From positions 1,280,001 through 1,344,000 of the forward strand of contig OY969763.1 in assembly GCA_963702845.1 (NCBI GenBank): a stretch of DNA of 64,000 nt, in the 5' to 3' direction. Origin of the DNA: an uncultured Verrucomicrobiae bacterium (GTDB lineage: Bacteria; Verrucomicrobiota; Verrucomicrobiia; Limisphaerales; Palsa-1400). The notes under the pieces are model-generated. The model had not been told where the DNA came from. It made no database searches and saw nothing but the letters and a program-made list of their open reading frames with translations. This document shows, in pieces, positions 17,737-57,400 of the stretch (positions are counted from its first letter, which is position 1; each line of letters opens with the position of its first letter). The translations under genes and the position numbers were made by a program.

Positions 17737-17740
17737 CGGA

Positions 17741-17778
17741 GCGTGGCGCGAAGGGGAAACCGGATGGGTTAAACTTCA
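17741..17778. repeat. 38-bp dispersed repeat, copy 1
   Basis: gcgtggcgcgaaggggaaaccggatgggttaaacttca; 36/38 identical to 49328-49365. Confidence 0.85.
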
Positions 17779-17813
17779 GGATGCAAAGCTTCGTTATCTT
17801 TGGTTCGGTTCGT

Positions 17814-18113
17814 TCACGCTTTATGGCGATCCGGCGATTCTGGTTTCGAACTTTGCCAGCGCGACTCGATTAGCAGGAGCCCGCCGGCGAACGTAAACAG
17901 ATTGCCGACGAGACCGGCCATGCCAACATACGCAAGTTTTCGCAAGGAAAGGCTAATCACTTTTGATGATTCTGATCCCGCGTCGTTTTTGCTCCCGACG
18001 ATACAACTGCTAATGTGCTCCATCGCCGCGTGCGATGCTGGGCCGATCGCGACAAAACACAGTAGCGACCAGATAAAACCACCAAAGATCAAACTCAAAG
18101 CTATTGCACGCAT
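17814..18113 (-). CDS. Small 2-TM hypothetical protein
   Basis: 99 aa ORF starting just after the 36-bp palindrome. Confidence 0.55.
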   Translation of the reverse strand: MRAIALSLIFGGFIWSLLCFVAIGPASHAAMEHISSCIVGSKNDAGSESSKVISLSLRKLAYVGMAGLVGNLFTFAGGLLLIESRWQSSKPESPDRHKA

Positions 18114-18123
18114 TTTTTTTAAA

Positions 18124-18159
18124 CGAACAGCGGGTTGTATATCACCAACCCGCCGTTCG
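18124..18159. repeat. 36-bp palindrome, copy 1
   Basis: cgaacagcgggttg-tatatcac-caacccgccgttcg; 35/36 identical to 49781-49816. Confidence 0.85.
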
Positions 18160-18170
18160 TCGAAATGTTA

Positions 18171-18791
18171 TTACGGTTTGCAACTGACCACGACTTCGTT
18201 GCTGAAGTTGCCGACGACTTCATTGCCGGTCATGAATTTGGCGCGGTATTCGCGCAACTCGGCTTTGCCGACGGCGAGCATGGGCCGGTCGTCGAGGTAA
18301 GGAAAATGCAGGACGACGGTCAAACGCGTGAAGTCCGGTTCATCGCCGCGTTTGCAATAGATGCAGATCGCCTCGCTGACGCCGAGCGTGGCGCGCAGTT
18401 CGACGATGCCGCCGCCTTTATCGACGGCGCTCAATACCGGCGCGGATGTGTTCAGGTCCTCGGTAATTTCCGGGCCGACGATGCCGAGAGCGTCGGCGAT
18501 GGCCGGTGTCAAACCGCTGGAGGCGCGGGCTTTTTTGGCGGCGAGCCGGGCGTGGGTTTCCGCGCCGAGACGACTCATCGTTTTGGCGTCGGCGGCGGCT
18601 TTGGCGGCTGCTTTGGCCGCGACGTTGGCGGGGAACTTGATGTGAAGATCGGTGTTATCAGCCGTAATCGCGGCAGTGTCACCGGGAACTAACCCAAGAG
18701 TGGCCGCATTGGCCAACAGCTGGGTCTTAAAGTTGTCATGCCAGGCCAGGAAGGCGTCGTCTGAATGGGGAATGAATCCGTCTCGTTGCAT
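18171..18791 (-). CDS. Hypothetical protein, helical N-terminus plus FnIII/Ig-like C-terminus
   Basis: FIP.SD..FLAW..NF..L.....LGL; Ala/Lys helix; C-terminal PYLD.RP..EYRA....GNFSNEV. Confidence 0.75.
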   Translation of the reverse strand: MQRDGFIPHSDDAFLAWHDNFKTQLLANAATLGLVPGDTAAITADNTDLHIKFPANVAAKAAAKAAADAKTMSRLGAETHARLAAKKARASSGLTPAIADALGIVGPEITEDLNTSAPVLSAVDKGGGIVELRATLGVSEAICIYCKRGDEPDFTRLTVVLHFPYLDDRPMLAVGKAELREYRAKFMTGNEVVGNFSNEVVVSCKP

Positions 18792-18856
18792 ATGTTTCTT
18801 GTTTCTAAGGGTTTATACCATTGTTTAGGGCTAGTTTTTGGAGACGTAGAAGGTTT

Positions 18857-19053
18857 GTCCAGAGCCGCTGGCGTGTTGTCCAGCGCCGCTGGACAGTTGG
18901 CTGGAGCCGCTGGACAGTTGTCCAGAACGGCTGGATTGCTGGCCAGAACCGCTGGCTCCTTGTCCAGAACCGCTGGACAATTGGCCAGAGCCGTCAGCCA
19001 CTTGGCCAGCGCCTTTGGACAGTTGGCCAGAACAGCTGGCCACTTGGCTGGAG
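18857..19053. repeat. 21-nt tandem array A (9 units plus partial)
   Basis: Consensus ~ g(t/g)ccagagccgctggacagtt with internal GTCCAG/CTGGAC palindrome. Confidence 0.95.
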
Positions 19054-19214
19054 GGAATATTTGCTCGAACGAAGGAAGGACCCATTGCGCCCAAGTTCCG
19101 GATACCAATTCCGAAATGCCCGACCATGCTTTTTTGAACCCGCCACATTTTCCGGCGGCGTTTGTGCCAAAGGCCCAAGGCGAGGTCAAGTGCCATTTAG
19201 TTTACAAGCCGCCG

Positions 19215-19294
19215 CCAAACCTGCGCGCCACCTTTAAAACCCTTGTTCGCGGATTGAAAGTATGCGAACTGTTGGCGCAGATTAGTTGTTAGCT
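19215..19294 (+). mobile_element. attI-like site 1
   Basis: ~80-bp repeat shared with 22739-22818, ends in GTTAGCT (GTTRRRY-like), ATG 7 nt later. Confidence 0.65.
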
Positions 19295-19301
19295 CGAACA
19301 G

Positions 19302-19763
19302 ATGACCGTCTTGCGCCAAATATTTGGGTTTGCTTCCGCCTGCTTCGTGGGCGTGCTTCTCCCAGTCGCTGCCGAGGTTTACGACGGAGTGTACCGGCAT
19401 TCACATGGTTCTCCAGCTCCATGGCCGAGCAGCCTCTTCCCCAAGGTTCAATTCGTTGCTCTAGGCAGCGCATTGGTCGGTCTGCTTGTCGGAGTTATTG
19501 GTGTCGGCCTGTTGCATTGGGCGCACCGCGTCAGACTAAAAGACTACGTGATTGCAGGGTTGGTTTTGGGAGCAGGGAGTGGAGCGTCTTTCACAGCGAT
19601 TTCCCGCATCCCGACTGACCCTGCTGTGTCTTGGGTCGTATTCATCGTGCTGCCGTCGCTCTCGATGGCCATTGGTTTTACCTGCTATTGGTGTATTTGT
19701 ATTCGTGGTGCAGCTAACAAGCTCACTGGAGCGAATGCGGGCGAAACTCCCGAGCTTAGTTGA
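19302..19763 (+). CDS. Cassette-like 4-TM membrane protein
   Basis: Bounded by GTTAGCT (19288) and complementary AGCTAAC (19712); reads into attC remnant. Confidence 0.7.
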   Translation: MTVLRQIFGFASACFVGVLLPVAAEVYDGVYRHSHGSPAPWPSSLFPKVQFVALGSALVGLLVGVIGVGLLHWAHRVRLKDYVIAGLVLGAGSGASFTAISRIPTDPAVSWVVFIVLPSLSMAIGFTCYWCICIRGAANKLTGANAGETPELS

Positions 19764-19906
19764 TAAACAACGCCTCATTCGTCGCTGTTCACGCGGGGAC
19801 TGCGGCGGCAACGAAGGCGTTCTCGGTGGATGCGGGTTTCGGCACCACCACCGTCTTCATGACCTCCATCGCGGCGAGTTTGCGCCACCATTCTTCGGCC
19901 TGCTCG
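19744..19906 (-). pseudogene. Displaced 3' end of unknown gene, copy 1
   Basis: Minus strand reads EQAEEWWRKLAAMEVMKTVVVPKPASTENAFVAAAVPA*; similar to 22655-22738 and 23452-23599. Confidence 0.65.
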
Positions 19907-19957
19907 AAACAAACAGGGCGCGGTGCGCGGGGTCAAGAAGGCAGAATACCGGCAAGC

Positions 19958-21574
19958 TCAAGGGTAGGGCTCGCCATGAACGGTTCGCGGCGCGGGTTGG
20001 AATGCCGCAGAGAAAATGTCATGGCGAGGATCGTAATAATCACCGGCGATGCCCATTAATCCGAGCAGCGTGTGGTCAAGTCGATCGGTTTGGTAAGGCC
20101 GGTTACGCAACTTGGAGTCGGTCTCAGGTTGGGTGCGGAAGGTCGAAGAGCGCCAGAAAATCATGGGGATTTCAAACTGCTCCCGCGCCCGTACGTTAAT
20201 ACCTGCAAAATTGTTGTGGTGGGCGACGTCCTGGCCGTGGTCGGAAACGAAGAGCCAGGCCACGGGTTGCGAGGACGCGCGGCAGAGAGCCAGCGAACGT
20301 TTCAGAACATGGTCCATGTAAAGTATGGCGTTGTCGTAGTAGTTGCGCTGGCTAATGGCCCAAAACGCGCGGCCTTCGGCTTTCAACTGCGTGGTGACGG
20401 CGTCGTCGGCGTTATTGAACCGCGCGAAGGATTTGGGGTAGCGGTAGAAATAGGCCGGATGGGCGTTGAGCAGGTGCACGATTATCAGTTTGCGGGGGCC
20501 GGGGTCGCGCAAGGCCTCCTCCAAAGCCGGAAGCACCGCTTCGTCATAGGACCCTGCGCCGCGCGAGGAGCCGCGATTTGCCATAACGGTTTTGTCGGCG
20601 TGTGAGGCGAAGACGGCAACCAATCCGTTTGCGTCGGTGCTATGATTGCTGATCCAGAAACTTTTGTAGCCGGCCTTTCTCGCCATCAGGAGCACGTCGG
20701 GCTTTTTCAGCCACAGGTCCGGGTGGGAGAGGTCCGCCGGGGTCAGGATATTTCTAAGCGCAGGGATGGTGGACGAATCGCAACTGACCACATCGGAAAA
20801 CCAGGTCAACTCATCGCCCATCGCATTCAGTTCGGGCGTGGTTTCCCGTTGGTAGCCGAAGCTGGGCAGGTTCAGCCGGGTGACACTTTCGCCGATGACA
20901 AAGACAAGCGTGCGAGGGGACGAGTCGGCGCAGTGCAAGGAATCGAGCTGCGGATCGGCAGCTGCAGTGGCCATCTTGGATTGCAGCGCGCGCGTCGCTT
21001 CGACGTCCCGCGCCCATTCCCGGTAGCGAATCGGAAAGAAGAGCGCCGGGTTATGGTTGCGAATGGACGAATTTAGATGAAACAGGAGGAACAGAATGGG
21101 GAAGGCCACGGCTGGTTTCCATGCGGCGCGCCGGACGTCGGCGGTCCGTGCCTGCGCCACGCCAACCCGCCTGCGCATTATCAGGGCGAATAGTGCCGCG
21201 AACACGGCCACGAGACCCGCGTGCTTGAGGAGAGCCAACATGTGGTGTTGGAGAAACTCAACCGCCTCCGCGCGGTCGGTGCTGAACATGGCTCCTACAA
21301 CAAAGTCTTCGTCAGGCCCAACGCCCAGGAATTCGCCCACGAAAGCGTGGAAACCGAGGAGCAGCAGGAATGGAATTGCTATAGCGAGGACGCAGGCTGT
21401 TCCGACTTTGGTTTCGTCGCCATGACGCGTGGTCCAGGCAGACACCGCCAGCACCGCGAGAGCGCCCAGCACCGCGATTTCGCTCGCCAGTTCCAAATTG
21501 ATCCAGCCCAGCATCAAATAGACAGCCGGGATCGTGATGAATGCTAGCGCTCTTGTTAACAGTATCATGCCCAT
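19958..21574 (-). CDS. Phosphoethanolamine transferase (EptC/CptA-like)
   Basis: TMs, T...EA.EF, VFVIGES, GY.RETTPEL, STIPAL, AGYK.FWISN, YDNAILYMD, SDHG. Confidence 0.9.
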   Translation of the reverse strand: MGMILLTRALAFITIPAVYLMLGWINLELASEIAVLGALAVLAVSAWTTRHGDETKVGTACVLAIAIPFLLLLGFHAFVGEFLGVGPDEDFVVGAMFSTDRAEAVEFLQHHMLALLKHAGLVAVFAALFALIMRRRVGVAQARTADVRRAAWKPAVAFPILFLLFHLNSSIRNHNPALFFPIRYREWARDVEATRALQSKMATAAADPQLDSLHCADSSPRTLVFVIGESVTRLNLPSFGYQRETTPELNAMGDELTWFSDVVSCDSSTIPALRNILTPADLSHPDLWLKKPDVLLMARKAGYKSFWISNHSTDANGLVAVFASHADKTVMANRGSSRGAGSYDEAVLPALEEALRDPGPRKLIIVHLLNAHPAYFYRYPKSFARFNNADDAVTTQLKAEGRAFWAISQRNYYDNAILYMDHVLKRSLALCRASSQPVAWLFVSDHGQDVAHHNNFAGINVRAREQFEIPMIFWRSSTFRTQPETDSKLRNRPYQTDRLDHTLLGLMGIAGDYYDPRHDIFSAAFQPAPRTVHGEPYP

Positions 21575-21712
21575 ACCCGCAAAGCCGCCTCGGAATGCAG
21601 CAATACTCGGGAGTTCCGGATTGCTGTGCCTTCTTCTTGCACGGAACATTGCCCGACGTCAACTATAGAAAATGTGCTGGTTCCGCTTTCGGAACTAGCT
21701 AAAGTCCCGTTT

Positions 21713-22633
21713 GTGAAGAATCCCTTACGCAAAAAGACCGTAAGAGTCGGGGCGATTTGCCTGGCGTCCATTTTGGTGGCTTATCTGATTCTTGGTTTTA
21801 CCGGCGGAGGATGGAGCCCTCGGTTGGACGATACGTTTCAATGGGACGGCGATTCGATGCTGCTTTTCGCCCACCGGGGGCTGGGTCGAAGCGTCCCGGA
21901 GAACAGCTTGGCGGCTTTCGCGGAAGCCCGGCAGCTTGGGTTCAAGGCGGTGGAGCTCGATATCCGAAAAACGAAAGACGGCCAACTGGCGATACTTCAC
22001 GACCCAACCCCTAAGCGGACGCTGGGCTTGGACGTCCGGTTCGGCGATTTAACCCTGGCGGAAATCAAACAGCGCAGAATGCTTTTCAAAGGGCAGGAAA
22101 CAACCAATTACATTCCGACCCTTCGGGAGGTGTTTGAAGCGGAAGGTAAGAATCTCCGGTTCTATCTTGATATGAAAGAGAAGAAGTTCCGCGACGCGGA
22201 CCAAATCGCGAGCCTCATCCAGGAGTTTGACCTTTATGACCGGACGATTCTTGCTTCGGTAGATCCGCTGTTTGTGGTGTACGTCGAGCATAAGTATCCA
22301 AGGATCAACACCACCCTTGAAAGGTTTGATACCGCCCAGTCATGGCTTTACCGACTGATCCCGAAAAGATGGAAACCTGATTATCTCTCCGGAGATGCCT
22401 CCAAGGCGGACTGCCAGCAGCACTGGCTGAAGGAAAACAATTTGCTGTCCAAACGAATCGTCTACTCGGTTGATCGGACGACTTACCAGCTGACGCTGAA
22501 CTCCGGCATCAGAAAGGCGATCGTAGATAACGATTTCAGCCTTTACTCAGACTCGCTGTCAAAACAGGTGCCGAGCTACCCGCATGAGACGGCTGTCTCA
22601 ACCGAACGGCTGAGTGAACCGCACTCGCAGTGA
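21713..22633 (+). CDS. Glycerophosphodiester phosphodiesterase
   Basis: FAHRG....PENSLAAF..A...G...VELDIRKTKDG....LHD, IPTL.EV, LDMK. Confidence 0.9.
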   Translation: MKNPLRKKTVRVGAICLASILVAYLILGFTGGGWSPRLDDTFQWDGDSMLLFAHRGLGRSVPENSLAAFAEARQLGFKAVELDIRKTKDGQLAILHDPTPKRTLGLDVRFGDLTLAEIKQRRMLFKGQETTNYIPTLREVFEAEGKNLRFYLDMKEKKFRDADQIASLIQEFDLYDRTILASVDPLFVVYVEHKYPRINTTLERFDTAQSWLYRLIPKRWKPDYLSGDASKADCQQHWLKENNLLSKRIVYSVDRTTYQLTLNSGIRKAIVDNDFSLYSDSLSKQVPSYPHETAVSTERLSEPHSQ

Positions 22634-22654
22634 GACATCTGTCAGATAATCATT

Positions 22655-22738
22655 GTTCACGTGGGGATTTCGGCGGCGATGGGTTTTCCGGTGGATGCGG
22701 GTTTCGGCACAACCCCGGTTTTGGCGACCTCCATCGCG
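22655..22738 (-). pseudogene. Displaced 3' end of unknown gene, copy 2 (shorter)
   Basis: gttcacgtgggga..cggcggc..ggtggatgcgggtttcggcac..gacctccatcgcg, abutting attI-like site 2. Confidence 0.6.
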
Positions 22739-22818
22739 CCAAACCTGCGCGCCACCTTTAAAACCCTTGTTCGCGGATTAAAAGTATGGGAACTGTTGTC
22801 CCAGATTAATTGTTAGGC
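22739..22818 (+). mobile_element. attI-like site 2
   Basis: Near-identical to 19215-19294, ends in GTTAGGC. Confidence 0.65.
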
Positions 22819-22828
22819 GCATGTCGAC

Positions 22829-23431
22829 ATGTCACTTCTAAAACCACTTACTGATTTGCAGCAGGGAAATCGATGCCTTTTTGCCAAGGATTATGAAAGG
22901 GCAGTCGAGTATTTCTTGCGCCATGCCCAAGCGCATCCGCAGGAGCGCGCCACAGCTTACGTGCAGGTCGCGGAATGCTGTCGCCGTTCAAACATCATCC
23001 CTCAACCTCAGCCCATCGCCCCGGGAGTCACGCTGGCATCGGCGAGTGATCGGCCTTCAGCAGAGTATTACTACCGTTTGGCACTTCAGAGCGAACCAGA
23101 CCACTTTGGCGCGTTGGGGGGACTAGCCGAGGTTTTGCCGGAGGCCGCTGATGAGCGCTTGTCGATTCTAGAGCGGGCCGCGGCTCTCCAGCCCAGTTGT
23201 TTGATCTTGGTCGCTCTCGGCGATTTCTATCGAAGCCATCGCAAGGATTTCTCTCGAGCGTACGAGAGCTATCGCCGCGCACAGGAGCAGAGTCCCAGAG
23301 ACGAAACCGCCTATCGTCGCCTGAATGACATGTGCCGGCGTCTCGGCAGGCCTGACGAAGCAACGGAGTGGAGCGAGCGATGGAGAGAGGCGAAAGCGAC
23401 GAAAAAGCGAGTGGACGGGAAAACAGCATGA
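22829..23431 (+). CDS. Cassette-like TPR protein
   Basis: TPR-like helices; flanked by GTTAGGCGCAT (22812) and exact complement ATGCGCCTAAC (23435). Confidence 0.8.
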   Translation: MSLLKPLTDLQQGNRCLFAKDYERAVEYFLRHAQAHPQERATAYVQVAECCRRSNIIPQPQPIAPGVTLASASDRPSAEYYYRLALQSEPDHFGALGGLAEVLPEAADERLSILERAAALQPSCLILVALGDFYRSHRKDFSRAYESYRRAQEQSPRDETAYRRLNDMCRRLGRPDEATEWSERWREAKATKKRVDGKTA

Positions 23432-23451
23432 CCGATGCGCCTAACAAATGA

Positions 23452-23715
23452 AAACTCCCGGCCTTAATTAATAAACAGCGCCGTTCACGCGGGGACTGCG
23501 GCGGCAATGGGGCTATCGGCTGACGCGGGTTTCGGCACCACCATCGTGTTCAATCACCTCCAGCGCGGCGACTTGCCCCACCATTCTTCCGCCTGCTCGT
23601 GGCCCCACTGGTTTGCGGCTGCGAAGCGTCTCAATGCCAACTCCAAACGGGTGCGCGCGCGGGGCGATCGGCCGGGTTCTTGGTCAGCGGGTCATGATTT
23701 CCGCAATGGATATTC
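23452..23715 (-). pseudogene. Displaced 3' end of unknown gene, copy 3 (longest, frameshifted)
   Basis: Minus strand reads ..LELALRRFAAANQWGHEQAEEWWGK../..VVPKPASADSPIAAAVPA*. Confidence 0.6.
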
Positions 23716-23741
23716 CGGTAAAGAGGGGATGGGCCCCGTTT

Positions 23742-24122
23742 TCACGATGCTTTGAGCTTCAGGGTAAAACGAACTGGTATGTGACCAACGCTTCCCACAA
23801 TCGCCACGTTGCCAGGAATGATCATATTCTGGGTCGTGTGAATCGGCGTACCGAGCGGAACCCCTGGTGACGAATTTGTATCGGTTACACTGAGGTCGCC
23901 TTCGATCACGACGGCGAACTTGCCATCCGCCAGCGGCGTTGCGGTCAGAATGCAGTCCTTGCCCTCAAGTTGCAGATGCGTTGGAGTGCTGGCGGTAACC
24001 TCCACTACGCCCCAGTCCGTGACCTGGATGGCGCCATCCTGATTTTTGACAGCGGAGGATTTATTGCAGCCGGCTAGCATTAAAATGCTGGCCGCAAATG
24101 CAGGGAGGACGAGCTTTTTCAT
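23742..24122 (-). CDS. Putative lipoprotein downstream of attI-like site 3
   Basis: MKKLVLPAFAASILMLAGC lipobox. Confidence 0.75.
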   Translation of the reverse strand: MKKLVLPAFAASILMLAGCNKSSAVKNQDGAIQVTDWGVVEVTASTPTHLQLEGKDCILTATPLADGKFAVVIEGDLSVTDTNSSPGVPLGTPIHTTQNMIIPGNVAIVGSVGHIPVRFTLKLKAS

Positions 24123-24161
24123 CGTGTTAATTGTGAACACCGCATTGTAAAACAAGTTTCG

Positions 24162-24220
24162 GTTCAACAATTAATGTGTGACAACTGTTCGCACATTTTT
24201 ATTACGCGAACAAGAGTTGC
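24162..24220 (-). mobile_element. attI-like site 3 (diverged, inverted)
   Basis: Minus strand gcaactcttgttcgcgtaataaaaatgtgcgaacagttgtcacacattaattGTTGAAC aligns without gaps to sites 1 and 2. Confidence 0.6.
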
Positions 24221-24241
24221 AACACTCCGAAGAACCGGCGC

Positions 24242-24625
24242 TCAGATCCAACGCTGTACCGACTCACCTATATCGCTCGGCAACTGATTGAAGCACAGTT
24301 TGGATTGAGGCGCGTGTTCATGCACCACGTTTACCAACTTCTCAAACAGCATAAAGTTGCTCGGAACCGTTCTAACACCTGCTCCAATAAGGACGCAATC
24401 GAACCGCTTCTGCTTGAGCTGGCTTTGAACCACGGCCTCAGCGGTTTCGCCAAAGTCGGTCATACACGTTTGCACACTGTAACCGAGACGAGTCAGTTCC
24501 TCTTCAGAGGACTTGACACCAGCCAGCACCTTGGCTGCGCTCATGCCCGGCGGATAGCCGGGTTTTGAGAAATCAATCAGTGCCGGGTCCAGGCCAACCA
24601 CGAGTACACTTTTCTTGTCTGTCAT
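24242..24625 (-). CDS. Conserved hypothetical small alpha/beta protein
   Basis: VLVVGLDP..FDCVLIGAGVR....LFEKLVN.VH..AP...CFN..P.D..E.V.RW. Confidence 0.8.
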   Translation of the reverse strand: MTDKKSVLVVGLDPALIDFSKPGYPPGMSAAKVLAGVKSSEEELTRLGYSVQTCMTDFGETAEAVVQSQLKQKRFDCVLIGAGVRTVPSNFMLFEKLVNVVHEHAPQSKLCFNQLPSDIGESVQRWI

Positions 24626-25195
24626 AGATATGTCCATGTAGTTATTGAGTGACGGATGCAGGGATGCGGCGAAGCTAGGCCGTGCCGGGAAGGGCGTCAA
24701 GCTATACCGCGAGGCACGGAGGTTCCGGTTGCGAGGTAATCTTATTACTACATAATTGACGAATGAGTAACTTCATGCCACGCTGCTGCCATGAAACTAA
24801 AGCGTTTCGATAGCAAATCCGAGCAGCCACGTCCCACTCTCACCCAGCGGAACACCGAAACGCTTGTACCCATTCGGCTTTCGAACGCTCGCACCACCCA
24901 ATATCTGCGAAATGGCTTTTCCCTTCCCGCAAACCTCAATAAAAAGTCGGCAAAAGTCACCTGCTGCCACCTACGGTCACCTACTGTCACCCAAAAAAAA
25001 TGTTTTATAAACACCACAGAAACTCAGTTTTTTCCACGCCCGCTTGCGTTTCGTTCACTTTTACACGTCGTTTTTACCCCCGTTTTTCGCGCATTTTCGC
25101 GCACGCTCGGCGCTGTCACGTGTTCAGAACTCATTTTCCCGCTTGGCTTTCGGCAAAAGGTGGTCTCATATCGTCCTACGTACAACCAAAACGCT

Positions 25196-32259: not shown

Positions 32260-32345
32260 TCGCAGCAGGCTAGCGACTTACTCGCCAACGCCCAATTCAA
32301 TTTTTTCTTTTAGCCTTTACCCTTTAACCCTTAGCCTTCACTTCG

Positions 32346-37775: not shown

Positions 37776-37852
<77 letters not shown>

Positions 37853-45624: not shown

Positions 45625-46116
45625 TGCTGGAACGTAAAGGCTAAGGGCTGAAGGCTAAAGGCTAAATTTCTCAAAACGCGGAATTTTGCGGAATCTTACG
45701 GAAATCTGCGGGAGATTCCTTTCAAATGTGGCTGTTTTCGACATTGCTGATTAACGCAAACCCCCTCGCGCTCAGGTTGAAACATCAAAAGGTGCTTTTT
45801 TTGAGGGGGTGGTCGTTTTTAACCGAAACTACCCGCAACTATCCGTAACTGCCTTCGTTTTCCTAAGCAAAATCGCGTTTTCCAATTCGGACAAATTGGG
45901 ACGATTCCGGACATGCTGCCGGACCGAGATTTCAATGAACAAACGGACTCATCTAAGAAGAGCTTCGACGTTGCCCGATGCTGGGAAGGACCGGCGACCT
46001 CTGCACATTATATGGTGAAGTTACGGCTTGTCAATGTCTGGCGTCGCTCTACATTGGTTGTATGTTTCGCTTGCACACCCGCTGGTTGACAGGCAGCTAT
46101 AGGGAGGATCAGCGCC

Positions 46117-49327: not shown

Positions 49328-49365
49328 GCGTGGCGCAAAGGTGAAACCGGATGGGTTAAACTTCA
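49328..49365. repeat. 38-bp dispersed repeat, copy 2 (promoter-like on minus strand)
   Basis: 36/38 identical to 17741-17778; minus strand TTGAAG-17-CACCTT just upstream of the GH gene. Confidence 0.8.
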
Positions 49366-49471: not shown

Positions 49472-49747
49472 TTAAGGTGTGGAGAGCCTGCAGATCGCTT
49501 CGGACTCGACGAAACCGGACACATTCAGCTGGCCGGAAAACCATCCCGAGAAGTCGATGTTAAAAAAACGCCTGTCCTCGGCAATGATTTGCCTCAGTTT
49601 CTCCTCGTGTGCCTTAGCAAGTCGATCTCGATGCCTCACTGCAGCCACCTCAGCATCATGCCGATATTGTAGTATGCAGCAGAAGGCGAAGAAGAACGCG
49701 ATCGCGATAATTACTAGTATGACTATTTTCTTCGCTCGCGTAAGCAT
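49472..49747 (-). CDS. Small membrane-anchored hypothetical protein
   Basis: 91 aa, N-terminal TM, follows palindrome copy 2. Confidence 0.5.
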   Translation of the reverse strand: MLTRAKKIVILVIIAIAFFFAFCCILQYRHDAEVAAVRHRDRLAKAHEEKLRQIIAEDRRFFNIDFSGWFSGQLNVSGFVESEAICRLSTP

Positions 49748-49780
49748 TTTAGTGAACGACCAATGTTCGCATATCTTATC

Positions 49781-49816
49781 CGAACAGCGGGTTGTATATC
49801 ACCAACCCGCCATTCG
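49781..49816. repeat. 36-bp palindrome, copy 2
   Basis: cgaacagcgggttgtatatcaccaacccgccattcg. Confidence 0.85.
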
Positions 49817-49827
49817 CCGCAATGTAA

Positions 49828-49920
49828 TCAAGGGACCATCTTGGTGGCCGGTTCACTCCAGGGGTCGGCGCCGCCGATTGCGCCGACGCGGAACCAGAGT
49901 TTGGATAATATTTTTGACAT
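49828..49920 (-). pseudogene. Internally deleted FnIII-type gene remnant (30 aa)
   Basis: MSKILSKLWFRVGAIGGADPWSEPATKMVP*; start context aagaaacatATG as at 18791; WFRV.A..WS.P resembles an FnIII C-terminus. Confidence 0.65.
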
Positions 49921-49985
49921 ATGTTTCTTATTTATAGCCATTTATACAATCGTTTCGTTCTGGTTTTCGGAGGTTTTGAGGGTTT

Positions 49986-50174
49986 GTCCAGCGCCGCTGG
50001 ACAAGTGTCCAGAGCTTCTGGCTACTTGGCTGGAGCCGCTGGACGGTTGTCCAGGACGGCTGGCTTCTTGTCCAGAACGGCTGGACAATTGGCCAGAGCC
50101 GCCAGCCACTTGTCCAGCGCCTCTGGACTGTTGGCCAATGCCGCCAGACAGTTGTCCAGAACGGTCGGCTAACG
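49986..50174. repeat. 21-nt tandem array B (9 units)
   Basis: Same consensus as array A with largely collinear unit variants. Confidence 0.95.
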
Positions 50175-50207: not shown

Positions 50208-50274
50208 ACCTAAACTATTTTCTGAACTGGGCCTTTCGCCCAATATCCTCAAAGCCATCGATAAGCTCGGCTTC
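50208..50274 (+). pseudogene. Displaced copy of deaD 5' end
   Basis: 62/67 identical to 55327-55393; no start codon, stop follows shortly. Confidence 0.85.
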
Positions 50275-50303
50275 AACAAGGTCCTAATTCAAGTGTCCCT
50301 GTG

Positions 50304-53300
50304 TTAAGGAACGGTCAGGAGATAAAACGTCCGGGGAGTAGATGGATTTGCCGGGAGCGTGATATTGAAACTGCCGGAGCTGTCAAAATTGCCGCTTTGC
50401 ACAACCGGCCATGCCGATAACGGTCGCAAATCCACGTTTGTGGAACTCACTATATGATAAGAGCCGTTGGCCGGACCATTCACCGCTGAAAAACTGATGC
50501 CGGAGAACGCGCCGCCGGTGGTGACCGCGGCGGCATTCGCAAATGATGGCATGGGCGGAGGCGGAGGTGTGTAAGTCAGAGTCACTGTCCGGTTTGCGAT
50601 GTTGTCATATATGTATGCCCCCGAAGGCACGTTGCCCGCGACGAAGGTGCCGGAGCCTGTGCGGCTGGTGTAACTGAGCAGCACCTCGTCGTTGGAGTCG
50701 GCGGGCGCATTGGTTACGTCCACGGTGATGGGGCCGTTCATCGTTATGGCACCGGCAGAGATGAGAGATGAGGCGGCATCACCAAAAGCGCCAGATGCCA
50801 AATCGAAGCCAATTCGACTGCCGCTTCCAAAAGTCAGGTTGCTCATCGTCATTTGTAATTTGGCCCCGATTGGATCGAGGATTACTTCCAGCTCTCCAGC
50901 GGCGACAGTGTAATTCCGGTTGGCGCTGGTTGCGGTGGTGACGGTGAGCAATCCGTTGCTGACTGTGGTTGAACCGGTATAGGAGTTGGTGCCGGTGAGA
51001 TTCAGCGCGCCTGAACCAATCTTCACGAGCGAGCCAGCGCCCGAGATAGCCCGAAGGAGAGTTAACGTGCTGCTTGTCACCACGTCAAAATTGCAGGCTG
51101 CGCCGTTGAGCAAAAAGTTGTTCGATACCGTCAGCGTTGCTGCGGTCGCACTGCTGTTTTGCAACGTGCCGGAATTAAATGTGAGCTGATATGCGGTTTC
51201 GCTGCTGCCGAACAGGTCGAGCGTGCCGCCGCCGAGCACGATCGGACCAGCCGACGTGGCAATGATCTGTCGGCCGCCAGTTCCGGTGACTCGGGCCGTC
51301 CCGCTCGTGTTCACTGTCAATCCACCTTGAACACTGTGCACGTTGGCGCTGCTGGTTTTGTCCATGAGGTATGTTCCGCCGTTGACGACGACAGAGAGGC
51401 CAGCGTTGTTTTTATTGCCGCTGGTTTGAAACGTGCCGTTGCCCTGCAGGGTCATGGTCGCGGCAGCGCCACTGCCGACCGCAGTCATTGCGCCCTCAGT
51501 CTTCAAAATACCGTTGCCTTGCAGCGTTAGCGTCAACGTCGAAACATTCAGCGTTCCCGATCCAAGGTCGAGGTTTCCGGCACCGCCAAAGCTAAAGCTG
51601 GCCGTCCAGGATTCCGCGACGGTAGGGTGGAGTAAAATGTCCGATCCCGATGTGTTATCGATCGTGCCTCCATTGATTGTGAAAATTGTGTTACCGAGAG
51701 CGGAATTGGGGCCGCCGTCGCCACCATTATTGATGTTCAATTTGCCGGAGTTAAGAATCGTGCCACCGCTATAGTTATTGAGTCCCGATAACGTCAATGT
51801 CCCCGGCCCCTGCACGGTCAGTTGATACTTCAGGCCACTATCGGTAATAATGCCGCCGCAGCTGAGCATGTTTGATCGAACGGTCACGGCCAGACTGCTT
51901 CCCAATGTCACGGGGCCGTTGCCTAAATCCAGATTGGTTCGTGAACCCGCGTAGGTGAAGTTTCCGTTCCAATTTTCCTGGTTGGAAAAGTTCAAAATAA
52001 CATTTGTCCCACTGGTATTATCTAGCGTCGCGCCCGGATTCAGCGTGAGGGGCCCGGTGCCGATGGCGGATGGTCCGGTGCCGTCTCCGCCGTTATTGAT
52101 GGCCAGCGTACCCGAATTCACTATTGTGCCTCCGCTATACGTGTTTGCACTGGCGAGAGCGAGCAGTCCCGAGCCTTGTAACAGAACGCTGGTGTTCCCA
52201 GCGATCGCGCCCGAACCGTTGACGCTGTAGGTGGCCGTCCCACCCGCTGTATTGTTGACGGTCAGGCTCCCCGGCTGGACGGTGGTGTTCAACGCGATCG
52301 CCACCGCGCTATTCGCGTTATCATCAAAATTCAGCGCGATTCCGTCCGAATAATTCGTTGCAGTGCCAGCTCCCGACACGATCCAATCTTTTGTGGCGAA
52401 GTCCCACGGGCCGGAGGCCGAGGGTCCCCAGGAAATAGAGACATTGGGCGAACTGCTGACCACCAGGTTGATCGTGTTGCCGTTTTGCACAAGATTGGCG
52501 GTAACTCCTGCAGGCAGCGATGTGATCGACGGCAAGGTGCCGCCCGTCAATGTCAGGGTCCCGCTGCACGTCATCAGTGGATAAGTTCCGACGAGTATCG
52601 CGTTGCCTTCAATGGTCACACTGTCCGAACTGTCCAACGACAGATCGCCGGCAACACGAATTACGCTGGCCAACGGACTGAGTTGAACATTGGCGAAGTT
52701 AAAATCCACTGTGGCGTTGTTTGCCATAGCAAGACCTGCATTGGTCCAGGATTGTCCTTTGGCTCCGAGCACCGTGGAGAGAACCGTTCCGCTATTCATG
52801 CTGACTGTCCCGATTGAAGTCCCAACGGCGTTACTGAAAGTCAATTGCCCGTTGAAGACCGTCGTTGACCCTGCGTAAGAGTTGGAGCCGCCTAAAGTGA
52901 GAATGCCGCCGCCGGTTTTGTTCAAGCCGCCAGGACCAGAAACTCCGCCCGTGAAACTAATATTGAATGGTGTTCCATTCGCGTCGGTGGCTTGCGCGGT
53001 CAGGTTGCCGTTGGTTGTGGTCAAAGTGACGGGCACCGACGAGACCCAATTCGCCGTAGCTCCAATCGTGCCTCCGGAAAGATTCACTGCCAGCGTGTTC
53101 AAGCCAGTCACTCCGTTGACGACAGCCATGCCGTTGACATCGAGGTAGAGCTGCCCGCCGGTCAGGTTGATCTGACAAGGAGGATTATTCGTATAAACCG
53201 CCGCCGCGCTGCCGATCAGGAATCCTTTCGCCGTCGTTATTCCACCGGAAATGTTGATCACCGCTCCGGCATTGGTCGTATACGCTCCCGAACTGATCGC

Positions 53301-54187
53301 CAGCATCGTGAAGTTCGAGATGGTAGAGGCGGTCACCCCGGGCGGCGCGGAAATGCTGGAGCCGATATTAACGGTCCCGCCCAACACATTCAGGGTGCTG
53401 TTATCGGCGAGTTGAAAGGTCACAAAGAGCCATGTTACCAAGCGTGCCCAGCACTCCCGTCCCGCTGACGTTAAAATATCCCGGCTGGCCTCGTGAAATC
53501 TTCATTCCGCCAACCGCGGTGTTCCGCAATGTTCCCCCGCTCAAGTTCCATATCGCCGGTGCAGCTATGTTTCGTCCGAGGGTGAAGGAGTTGAAGGCAA
53601 CCGCTCCACCCGTCTGGTTTACCGTGACGGCATCGGCCAGGAACGTTCCGCCTTCTGTAAAGTTTCCGTTGGTGATGTTGATAGTGCTAAAGGCAGCGCC
53701 GACACCTTTCCAAATGGGGTTGCCGGTCGTGCTCGCCCAACCATTCCCGATCGTCAGCGTTGCGTTGCTGCCCACAGAAATTGTCTGGCCTGTCGTGCTT
53801 AATGGGCAATTCAGTACGACACTGACGTCATTGGACAACGTCATGGTGCTGGTGTTGGTCAACCGTGACCCGGAGAGGGTGTAACCACTCATCCGGAATG
53901 CCACGACTGCGGCGCCGACGTTGCCATCCACATTGATGCTGTAAGTGCCGGGAGTGGACGCGCCAATGATGGCGTCATTGGCATTGGCCCAGGTCTGGTC
54001 GCTGGCGTTGTTATACCAGGCGCTGGCGGCATGCCAGTTTCCGCTGCCATCGGAAGCAGCACCGCCCACAGCCGGGTCCCAGTAAAGGGTGATCGCGCGG
54101 GCTGTGGCCGTTGCCAGAAATAAGGCGGCCAAAGCAAGGGGTGAGATACGAAGCGTATCGGGCGTGAGAGGTTTTAACGGTTTTCAT
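50304..54187 (-). pseudogene. Autotransporter-associated beta-strand repeat adhesin, frameshifted
   Basis: GGLNKTGGG.LTL.G.NSY.G.T.V..G.L repeats; C-terminal Y.I.SSTN....W...FY.L; split at ~53410 and ATG at 54187 out of frame. Confidence 0.8.
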
Positions 54188-54420
54188 TTATATATGAACC
54201 GCAGGCGTGCTTGAATAACACGCGCGCATTGGGTATTGGCCGACAATGCGTTGATTGAAAATCGTGGTCAAACTTATATTTTTCTGCGGCTGGCAATTTT
54301 TCCGGGCGCGAGCCGCAACGTTCGTTGGAGCATTCCTCAGGGGGCCATCTTGTGTATGTTGCGTATTTATAGACGTTTATGCAGTGTTTTTAGGCTGGTT
54401 ATCGGCGGGTTAGGAGGCTT

Positions 54421-54756
54421 GTACAGCGCCGTCGTACACGTGTACAGCGGCGCTGTGCACTTGAACGGAGCCGCTGTGCACTTGAACGGAGCCGCTGTGC
54501 ACTTGAACGGAGCCGCTGTGCACTTGAACGGAGCCGCTGTACACTTGCACGGAGCCGCTGTACACTTGCACGGAGCCGCTGTACACTTGCACGGAGCCGC
54601 TGTACACTTGCACGGAGCCGCTGTACACTTGCACGACGGGACGGTAAAGTGGTACGGAGCCGCCGTCCAAATGGACGCCGCCGCTGTACGGGTGGACGGA
54701 GCGGCTGTACGGGTGGACGAAGGCGCGGTACACTTGCACGGCGGGATTGTTCAATC
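54421..54756. repeat. 21-nt tandem array C (16 units)
   Basis: g(a/c)acggagccgctgt(g/a)cactt; 8 near-identical central units. Confidence 0.95.
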
Positions 54757-54895
54757 GAGCGGACCTCGCGTAAGTGGGGTCACGCGGGGAAAATGGTTTT
54801 ATGAGCCCATAAAACGATAAAATGGGTCAATAAAATCGTTTTATGAGGTGGTGGGGAAATTGATGGAGGTGGCTGGAATCTAGCTATTTGCCGGT

Positions 54896-55321: not shown

Positions 55322-57400
55322 ATGACACCTAAACTATTTTCAGAACTCGGCCTTTCACCCAATATCCTCAAGGCCATCGAGAAGCTCGGCTTCGAACAGG
55401 CCTCGCCCATTCAGGCCGAATCGATCCCGGTCTTGATGTCCGGACGCGATGTCGTCGGCCAATCCCAAACCGGCTCCGGCAAAACCGTCGCCTTCGCCGC
55501 GCCCGCCATCGAGAAGGTCGATGTCGCCGTGCGCGCCGTGCAGATTTTGATTCTTTGCCCGACGCGCGAGTTGGCGGTGCAGGTTTCTGAAGAGGTGCAT
55601 AAGCTGGCGTTTTTCACGCGCGGCATTCATGCGCTGCCCATTTACGGCGGGCAATCGTATGACCGGCAAATTTCGGGGTTGCGCCAGGGCGCGCAGATCG
55701 TCATCGGCACGCCGGGACGTGTCATGGACCACATGCGTCGCGGGACGTTGCGGCTGGATAAGGTGAAGATGGTGATCCTCGACGAGGTGGACATCATGTT
55801 GAACATGGGTTTCCGCGATGACATGGAAACGATTCTCAAAGAGACGCCCAAGGAACGGCAGACGGTGCTGTTCTCGGCGACGATTCCGCGCGCGATCCAG
55901 GATTTGATTTCCAAATACACGCGCGACCCTCAAAGGGTGGCCATCGAGCGCAAGGAGCTGACGGTGCCGACGGTGGAGCAGGTGTATTACGAAGTGGATC
56001 GCCGCTTCAAAATCGAACTACTGACGCGCTTGATCGATATTTATGATCTGAAGCTCGGGATTATTTTCTGCAACACGAAGCGCATGGTGGATGATCTGGT
56101 GGATCATTTGAACGCGCAGGGGTATTCGGCGGATCGTTTGCACGGTGACATGAACCAGCAGCAGCGCGATCGCGTGATGATGAAGTTTCGCAAGAGCGGT
56201 TTGGAATTTCTCGTCGCGACAGACATCGCGGCGCGCGGCATCGACGTGGATGACGTGCAGGTTGTTTTCAATTACGACCTGCCCTACGACGTGGAAGATT
56301 ATTTGCATCGCATTGGCCGAACCGGTCGCGCGGGCAAGAGTGGTCGCGCCATATCGTTTGTTGGCGGGCGTGAGTTGTTTCAAATCCAAAACATCGAACG
56401 CTTCACGAAAGTGCGCATTCACCGTTCGCAAGTCCCCACCGCTCAGGCAGTGGAAGAAGCGCGCGCGAATGTTTTCATCGAAGAGCTGCGCAATATTTTA
56501 AAGACCGGTGAGTTCAAGAAACAGGATCATTTGGTCGAGCGTTTGTTGGAAGAAGGGTTTACTTCGACGGATATTGCGTCGGCGTTGATCCATCAATTGC
56601 AAAACGGCGCCGGCGCACCCGCCAAACCCGCTCCGCAACCTGAAGAGCAACGGCCGCGCTACGACGATTCACGCGGACGTCGCGATGATGGCCCCCGTGG
56701 TTTTAGCGATCGGCGCGAGGAGCGTTTTGACCGACGTGATGAGCGTCCCATGCGCCGCGATGATCGTCCGCCGATGCGTCGTGACGACCGTCCAGCGCGA
56801 GATGAGCGTCCGGCACGATCAAATTTCGCTGGCGACCGTCAAGCCCCGGCAACGCGCAAGCCGTGGACTACCGGCGAACCGCGCCCTGTGCGAACACCAG
56901 CCCCAACAGCAAAACCACAAATCGCGCCAGTTTCTGAAACCGCGCCGGTTGAAAAGATCGAAAAGAAATCCACTCCAAAAGAACCGGCCGTTGCCAAAGC
57001 CCCCGTCGCCAAAGCTCAAGCTCCCGCAGCTGAAACCTCCGCTGCTGTCGAAGAAGCAACGCAACCGGCGCGTGTCGAAAAGCCAAGTCGGCCTGCAAAA
57101 TCTCGCGGCCCCTTCGCCGCACCATTCGGCGCTCCCCCGCCCAAGCCCGCGAGCCGTCGCACACCCGATGAACAAACCCGTCTCTTCATGAATGTTGGCG
57201 TGGAAATGGGAGTCGAAAAAGGCGATGTCGTAGGAGCAATTTTAGGTGAAACAGGATTGCCCGGCGCGACCGTAGGGACAGTGGACCTTCGCGAACGTCA
57301 TGTATTTGTCGACGTCGCGAAAGAGCACGCCAACGCCATTATTTCCAAGTTGAACCGCACGCAAATCAAAGGGCATAAACTTAAGGTGAAGGTCGCTTAG
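55322..57400 (+). CDS. deaD: DEAD-box RNA helicase with DbpA-type C-terminal domain
   Basis: Q motif, QTGSGKT, PTRELA, TPGR, DEVD, SAT, ARGID, HRIGRTGRAG. Confidence 0.9.
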   Translation: MTPKLFSELGLSPNILKAIEKLGFEQASPIQAESIPVLMSGRDVVGQSQTGSGKTVAFAAPAIEKVDVAVRAVQILILCPTRELAVQVSEEVHKLAFFTRGIHALPIYGGQSYDRQISGLRQGAQIVIGTPGRVMDHMRRGTLRLDKVKMVILDEVDIMLNMGFRDDMETILKETPKERQTVLFSATIPRAIQDLISKYTRDPQRVAIERKELTVPTVEQVYYEVDRRFKIELLTRLIDIYDLKLGIIFCNTKRMVDDLVDHLNAQGYSADRLHGDMNQQQRDRVMMKFRKSGLEFLVATDIAARGIDVDDVQVVFNYDLPYDVEDYLHRIGRTGRAGKSGRAISFVGGRELFQIQNIERFTKVRIHRSQVPTAQAVEEARANVFIEELRNILKTGEFKKQDHLVERLLEEGFTSTDIASALIHQLQNGAGAPAKPAPQPEEQRPRYDDSRGRRDDGPRGFSDRREERFDRRDERPMRRDDRPPMRRDDRPARDERPARSNFAGDRQAPATRKPWTTGEPRPVRTPAPTAKPQIAPVSETAPVEKIEKKSTPKEPAVAKAPVAKAQAPAAETSAAVEEATQPARVEKPSRPAKSRGPFAAPFGAPPPKPASRRTPDEQTRLFMNVGVEMGVEKGDVVGAILGETGLPGATVGTVDLRERHVFVDVAKEHANAIISKLNRTQIKGHKLKVKVA

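Follow-up and report, generated by a model that had tools for sequence, protein, structure and literature searches.

In the ParR-parC, TubR-tubC and Rep-iteron systems, helically phased sites lie before the gene of the protein that binds them, and the motifs of paralogues differ. KfrA of plasmid RA3 is presented, in excerpts of its description (PMC7783346), as a long helical oligomerising protein, plasmid-encoded next to a partition operon, whose HTH is N-terminal and precedes a coiled-coil tail; five direct repeats of 9 bp go with it. The BrickBuilt MITE of Porphyromonas gingivalis, in the portion of the source drawn on here (PMC4596501), consists of 23-nt units with IS5-type terminal inverted repeats and is non-coding and confined to one genus. 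Excerpts on CALIN and SALIN elements and on cassette insertion at secondary sites (PMC4889954; bioRxiv 10.1101/2022.09.11.507474) describe cassette genes that stand without a nearby integrase.

The locus described here lies in a 64,000-nt stretch of DNA, hereafter the window, from an uncultured Verrucomicrobiae bacterium. Its conserved unit is an array of 21-bp units followed by a leader and a gene for a 206-aa protein, and this core departs from KfrA, centromere and iteron arrays, MITEs and CRISPR-like systems in defining features that were tested. Like KfrA, it combines a long helical protein with repeats directly before its own gene and, as we propose, with autoregulation; unlike KfrA, the protein has no HTH (in a model of pLDDT 96.8) and carries an FnIII domain, and the units are symmetric, 21 bp long, chromosomal and alone. 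Nor is the setting that of KfrA, there being no match in plasmid collections and no partition family among 81 flanking ORFs. The locus resembles BrickBuilt, so far as the excerpts describe that element, in its imperfect spacerless tandem array, its distinct leader and tail and its many partial copies per genome, and differs in the 21-bp unit, in a gene conserved across phyla (intact in five copies in the host genome) and in that no such ends were seen. Unlike CRISPR-type guide arrays, the units run head to tail without spacers, and neither Rfam nor PADLOC gave a match.

The pairing of array and gene appears to be undescribed: we found no paper on it in a search of the main texts of mostly open literature. 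The core is real and widespread, belonging to an unnamed family of thousands of clusters in at least six phyla, nearly every tested member of which has a cis array. If the protein were a plain autorepressor the core would be closer to known kinds. New here are the dimer model, the strand and register tests, the turnover of array sequence, the probable attI origin of a palindrome and the division of the locus into core and tail.

Module A and its copies in the host genome

Module A, which the first-pass annotation read as a six-part layout (array, leader, gene, palindrome, variable gene and end motif), lies on the minus strand, and re-reading the window bore out the positions given there for every part. 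Before the array is a conserved non-coding head of 127 bp (19066..19192, minus strand) that starts with TTGACC (19189-19184) and is possibly a promoter plus a structured leader; it is common to four other places in the host genome (81-91%) and is also found at two places in a congener, G302, where no array directly follows it. Array A (18853..19053, minus strand) consists of imperfect 21-bp units, about 9.5 in number, that are dyad-symmetric and keep exact register, with a symmetry of 0.71 against a null of 0.51. The unit length of 21 nt is exact, substitutions being the sole change, and the term "hairpin" array is apt as regards symmetry (RNA fold z −4.2) but not as regards a strand, since neither is favoured. 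TRF called period-21/42 arrays at 18855-19046, 50038-50164 and 54451-54741.

The array runs into an A-rich leader (18792..18852, minus strand) with TATAAA about 30 nt ahead of the ATG. This leader had no match to the sigma-70 consensus, and a sigma-70 and terminator scan returned no promoter and nothing at the palindrome. The gene itself (18171..18791, minus strand) encodes helices at residues 11-27, 36-90 and 96-102 and an FnIII domain at 110-206. It is followed on the same strand by palindrome A (18122..18161), which occupies the terminator slot and ends in the core site GTTCGTT, by an integron-cassette-like variable gene of 99 aa (17814..18113), by the inverse core AACGAAC over the stop of that gene (17808-17814; a 7/7 complement, without a full attC) and by end motif A (17741..17789). 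Apart from tRNA (nearest, 37779-37852, a single gene on the minus strand), Rfam found nothing in the whole window.

Module B, also on the minus strand, comprises an array of the same unit type as array A (49984..50174), a leader (49921..49983), an internally deleted gene remnant of 30 codons (49828..49920), a palindrome (49781..49816) followed by a partial attI-like stretch (49752-49773), a variable 91-aa ORF without a clear inverse core (49472..49747) and an end motif (49328..49365). The identities reported between A and B, 35/36 for the palindrome and 36/38 for the end motif, are exact; the leaders are alignable as described (18789-19029 versus module B, 75.5%), and the variable ORFs are indeed unrelated, each having one N-terminal hydrophobic stretch. 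Searching the reversed genome as a chance control yielded no palindrome and one end motif, where the genome as it stands has 12 loci of the former and 10 of the latter. The remnant in B derives from a second FnIII-type gene and not from the 206-aa gene, and a homology search found no demonstrable relationship between the B and C remnants and the 206-aa family, the one match obtained not counting as independent. At the left edge of module B sits a 72-bp scrap (50208..50278, minus strand) of the 5' end of a nearby DEAD-box helicase gene, 91.7% identical to window positions 55327-55398 in the helicase gene beside module C, which suggests copying together with flanking DNA.

Module C (minus strand) begins with a head palindrome (54792..54854) and has an array of 16 units (54418..54756) that is recently expanded and homogenised. 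Fused to its leader (54320..54417) are the final codons of the second gene (54337-54352) and the opening bases of the palindrome (54320-54336). The head palindrome is kept at the orthologous site in G302, where it stands before an array of different sequence and the same period. Between modules B and C, a large autotransporter-repeat (PATR) protein gene is apparently split into ORFs 53401-54132 and 50304-53441 (minus strand).

The host genome (6.03 Mb in one contig, 54% GC, 89.8% complete by markers) contains five intact paralogues of the 206-aa gene, the other four being 87, 41, 38 and 36% identical to A, as well as broken paralogues and further array-leader copies. We count eleven module copies (including K, H, J, L and, in the window, B and C), six of them without an intact gene; as had been claimed, the non-coding parts outlast the gene, in B and C and in four further copies. 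Scanning the whole genome for periodicity yielded 22 regions, of which 10 are the array module and several others resemble coding heptads. The array of copy L (C1:2527800) is a hybrid, and array types are swapped between A and D, whose proteins are 87% identical and whose unit types are related yet distinct; the differing units of A and D and the hybrid in L together indicate that arrays have been converted or swapped. The close copies D and H (C1:2197050 and 5448278) end right after the stop in a GTAG-bounded doublet, which we take to be REP-like, and not in the palindrome.

Degenerate 21-bp arrays of other unit types occur at C1:3794001-3794155, 3189700-3189830, 1826980-1827100, 181221-181429, 1071644-1071980, 3295166-3295379, 4696531-4696864 and 5103827-5104136. 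None of these eight has an intact family gene behind it, and in two or three cases the palindrome, or some variant of it, comes next. Short intergenic tandem repeats of 7 and 10 bp are also present in the window (32309-32338, 45635-45913), the 7-bp type also lying inside the decayed modules K and M.

A protein family linked to 21-bp arrays

Homologues of the gene do not generally lack arrays, the outcome that the first-pass annotation had singled out as contrary to its proposal. A 21- or 42-bp periodicity was found upstream at 49 of 52 loci and in control windows at 5 of 49 (downstream) and 6 of 41 (far upstream), although these counts overstate independence, the loci having been chosen by one peptide motif with close kin included. 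An array was called where periodicity exceeded both a threshold and all 100 shuffles. We examined 67 loci and dropped 15 (14 partial or with less than 400 bp of upstream DNA, one without a profile match). Judging by record titles, the loci come from Verrucomicrobiota, Planctomycetota, Bacteroidota, Ignavibacteriota, Myxococcota, Acidobacteriota and others; the cultured Flavobacterium psychrotolerans (L068) is one carrier. The full-length loci without an array are L040, L095 and L025; separately, the best upstream period was 22, 17 or 8 at L095, L062 and L023 (L095 having period 22 at 0.69).

Boundaries set by a stricter finder gave 53 arrays for the homologous loci and the host-genome copies taken together, of which the 48 of at least 105 bp were used further. 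The arrays have a median length of about 204 bp (110-335) and end a median of about 96 bp ahead of the start. Four relatives (L024, L028, L033 and L162) have a proline-rich insert in mid-helix, and their arrays are still 21 bp in period. No recurrent neighbour family emerged among the 81 flanking ORFs (the longest per flank, about 45 loci), which included one IS110.

With the centromere and iteron arrays named above, these arrays share helical phasing, the best upstream period being 21 or 42 in 46 of the 52 loci and a phase shift between array halves being absent in 43 of 44 arrays. They differ in having no ATPase, GTPase or Rep neighbour and no plasmid or phage match, and in units that are far more degenerate. 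A parallel in layout is offered by DUF6261 (PF19775) genes, which likewise encode a helical protein, are multi-copy and have a phased upstream array. Four of these genes (L151-L154, in G364) have upstream arrays, one with period 42 (0.81) and three less regular, and DUF6261, unlike the 206-aa family, has no FnIII domain. No homology between the two was found: there was no Pfam match, and the hhalign probability was 0.2 with a shallow four-sequence alignment.

Neither Pfam nor NCBIfam has a family for any of 121 members, and PADLOC and PDB sequence searches named none for the 206-aa protein. In a profile search over 1.84 billion representatives the family comprised 4,199 clusters at E ≤0.001 and 1,793 at 1e-10, and a set of distant members aligned with it over the full length (hhalign 98.9%). 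The nearest Atlas clusters are unnamed, apart from one 15% fn3 cluster at 0.90, and the N-terminal part had no match there.

The AlphaFold2 model (pLDDT 96.8) shows the three helices and a C-terminal beta domain that is FnIII by structural comparison (Z 11.2, rmsd 2.1 Å over 88 residues with an integrin beta4 FnIII domain, among many ties), with which Foldseek agrees; folded alone and without an alignment, the N-terminal part reached a pLDDT of 56. The 206-aa protein has no signal peptide and a hydrophobic N-terminus occurs in just 1 of 121 members, so the family is probably cytoplasmic. Modelled as a homodimer it scored 0.74 against 0.00 for the best control. Among solved homodimers 20 of 30 attain that mark, and among single chains 1 of 23. 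Between runs 92% or more of the contacts agreed, with pLDDT of at least 86 and an interface confined to residues 5-107. The protein is thus predicted to be an antiparallel homodimer, in whose model the long helices pack antiparallel around residues 59-63 and the FnIII domains lie outside the interface. Helix 36-89 is of one length in 113 of 121 proteins, and across the 121 R82 is conserved at 96% and K89 at 93%. Residues 59-95 are the sole basic segment (median net +6), the remainder is acidic and the whole protein has a median pI of 5.9. Copy A lacks several family residues (K136, D160 and S163). Fold searches gave no precedent for DNA binding by FnIII and no likeness to a recombinase.

Array geometry and what may read it

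Besides register, what the arrays keep is symmetry and period. Dyad symmetry exceeded column-permuted nulls at p 0.05 in 33 of 48 arrays and was not significant in 15, by a whole-array test that replaced a weak consensus-only one (8 of 53). Among the conserved blocks of the arrays, spacings of 21 or 10.5 bp are commoner than other harmonics, a modest signal (10 + 10 of 48). Template-switch mutation could also keep symmetry without selection. Base sequence, by contrast with period, register and length, is free to vary and changes quickly. Motif similarity follows protein identity weakly (Mantel rho 0.15 over 45 entries, one locus entered twice), and protein pairs 84%, 79% and 63% identical had motif scores of 0.39, 0.45 and 0.27, near background; this weak tracking makes base-specific recognition doubtful. 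Such a combination of held geometry and free sequence is a rare constraint and points to an uncatalogued protein-DNA geometry.

Our leading reading, at roughly 0.45, has dimers of the 206-aa protein covering the double-stranded array at intervals of two helical turns and regulating the gene that encodes them. The protein would be a two-fold symmetric rod of antiparallel long helices about 85 Å in length, with a basic stripe on each half, and would bind one face of the array with a dimer on roughly every 21 bp. That length equals two B-DNA turns, or 71 Å; helix arithmetic would put the symmetric R82-K89 pairs 63-84 Å apart, which serves only as a plausibility check on that spacing. Some ten dimers would then cover the DNA just before the gene and so influence its expression, leaving both FnIII domains free for contacts between dimers or with partners. 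Selection would act on period, symmetry and length and hardly on base sequence, and the unit would travel by itself, as a separate accessory segment. In this genus the downstream hairpin slot would have come to hold an attI-derived palindrome, at which integron-type cassettes once inserted, the block then being copied and decaying. Natural variants could provide orthogonal pairs, and the protein, should it indeed coat such arrays, a compact scaffold or repressor tool.

A bolder version, which would make the module a widespread and undescribed class of self-contained nucleoprotein unit, takes the rod dimer for a ruler that reads DNA geometry and not sequence, forming a filament of fixed length on a 200-bp array. 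Its FnIII domains, set out in a row, would offer a surface for docking and turn the locus into a hub for recombination and the capture of cargo, and the unit would spread without a transposase of its own. We hold this to be improbable; a simple ruler is weakened by the 21-bp arrays at the proline-insert relatives and at DUF6261 genes.

The alternative that survives best, in our judgement an unlikely one, takes the module for a non-autonomous mobile element, either a BrickBuilt-like minisatellite-MITE or of REP type, in which recombination or copying acts on the array, with the protein as helper or passenger and the cassettes as cargo. Several observations fit it. Module A stands with three attI-headed genes in an accessory island of about 7.4 kb (17737..25150, the right end approximate) between M48 peptidase and rhamnosidase genes. 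The comparison with an empty site that the first-pass annotation had called for was possible in the congener: G302 lacks the island at the same site, its M48 peptidase gene passing directly into a rhamnosidase gene (80% identical), so the 7.4 kb are an insertion in the host genome. The gene is patchy, occurring in 2 of 30 family genomes and, in a loose first look, in 3 of 300 phylum genomes. The eleven copies, six with the gene deleted, the hybrid array at C1:2527800, the A/D swap and the host-gene scrap at the edge of B point the same way, as do seven Y1 transposase matches in the host genome. Against it, neither terminal inverted repeats common to the copies nor a target duplication was seen by eye or BLAST, and the ends of the copies differ; no transposase family recurs beside homologues (the one IS110 among 81 ORFs); plasmid, phage and viral collections held no match to the module; and the 206-aa protein is intact across phyla, unlike a MITE. 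One of the Y1 matches lies near C1:3188824, beside an array-palindrome unit.

Somewhat less credible is action at the RNA level, the array being transcribed from a promoter in the head as a long leader or processed repeat RNA that the protein binds, much as the earlier suggestion of an array-RNA plus protein system had it. The module head is conserved, the leader folds above shuffles (z −4.2) and TTGAC lies 90-210 bp before 5 of 8 host-genome arrays. Family-wide, however, TTGAC is not enriched (10 of 48, against 8 in the control and 7 antisense), Rfam gave no match, and the strand tests lend the suggestion no support: G.U and folding bias is absent on either strand, with 773 G.T versus 758 A.C mismatches and the sense strand more stable in 26 arrays and the antisense in 22. 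A-form RNA has about 11 bp per turn, so that 21 suits two turns of B-DNA better.

Less probable again is that the array binds a host factor, such as a nucleoid protein or regulator, or shapes the DNA itself, and so tunes a gene whose protein has an unrelated job. Geometry independent of sequence, arrays at the unrelated DUF6261 genes and a protein that is acidic overall would all be compatible with this. The unlike motifs of divergent paralogues in one genome (array motif similarity 0.21-0.41) argue against one shared host factor, as do the conserved basic stripe and the rarity of such periodicity, with only about 22 regions in 6 Mb, of which the module accounts for 10 and coding heptads for several others.

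That the array encodes a heptad-repeat peptide pairing with the long helix is very improbable: 21 nt make seven codons and open frames are commoner than in column-permuted nulls (166 versus 117), an excess that may come from TA avoidance, but a frame is open through to the gene in just 6 of 53 arrays, strand and frame are not fixed, a third-position codon pattern appears in 3 of 48, the peptides are unlike each other and share no composition, and L090 has no open frame. The arrays look non-coding.

The genus-limited tail

Only in this genus does the core carry the palindrome, variable gene and end motif, which are a separate local add-on. The palindrome was found by pattern at 12 loci in the host genome, besides a diverged one in copy K; at 7 of the 12 it comes directly after the gene's stop or that of the second-gene remnant, and at 7 the end motif lies 290-435 bp further on. 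Among 30 family genomes it occurs in one, G302 (L119), where the order of remnant, palindrome, gene and end is kept. Palindrome, attI-like site and end motif are absent near 66 homologous loci of other genomes, where hairpins after the stop are nonetheless common (z < −2.5 in 33 of 63, against 0 of 63 in-gene controls) and are presumably of other kinds, for example terminators or REP-like doublets. The reading of the six-part layout as one system is consequently unsupported, the tail motifs being found at 0 of 66 outside loci and the palindrome in 1 of 30 family genomes, and copies D and H ending in the REP-like doublet.

The cassette-like character of the tail, in contrast, was upheld. At several loci the palindrome continues into a motif found about 40 times in the host genome with a different gene behind each copy, and this motif matches the site beside intI in three IntI-encoding family genomes (nhmmer E 0.01-0.07 plus alignment), which makes it attI-like. 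Read on the plus strand, one palindrome arm agrees with the left 22 bases of the family attI at 18 of 22 positions, without a crossover end on that strand. GTTCGTT precedes gene A, whose stop is overlain by the exact complement; such cassette ends, core plus inverse core, occur at 10 of 51 sites versus 6% in controls, and module B has none. A complete attC is not evident behind gene A or B, and attC-like hairpins stand behind some other sites. No protein in the host genome matched IntI over the TIGR02249 cut-off, IntI is present in 16 of 60 relatives, and the attI pattern had no match in a collection of genome contigs. From these likenesses the palindrome appears to be of attI origin and the tail integron-derived. 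It resembles CALIN and SALIN, as the excerpts present them, in having cassette-type genes and no nearby integrase, and differs in an attI-derived site folded into a palindrome, in an attC that is mostly lost and in its position behind the array-gene unit; alone, the tail would be a variant of integrase-less cassette sites.

That the whole layout is a single self-contained cassette-capture system driven by the 206-aa protein therefore has very little going for it: the fixed position of the palindrome and end motif (7 of 12 each), the order kept in G302 and the lack of an IntI over the cut-off in the host genome would suit it, but the tail is missing at the 66 outside loci, the palindrome arm matches an ordinary attI, the fold has no recombinase likeness and some 40 attI-like sites occur without the module.

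A LexA box was considered in the module and rejected, the motif having no match and no paper being found. At C1:3182906-3182944 a solitary end motif precedes the start of a host gene and is a possible source of the copied motif. The window itself contains attI-like sites at 19235-19294 (plus strand), which points away from module A and heads ORF 19302-19763, at 22755-22818 (plus strand) and at 24166-24218 (minus strand), and some of the roughly 40 dispersed sites have perfect cassette ends and attC hairpins. A repeated scrap at 19786-19906, 22654-22738 and 23485-23687 resembles, on the opposite strand, a gene's 3' end; it closes attI-headed units and sometimes passes straight into the next attI head.
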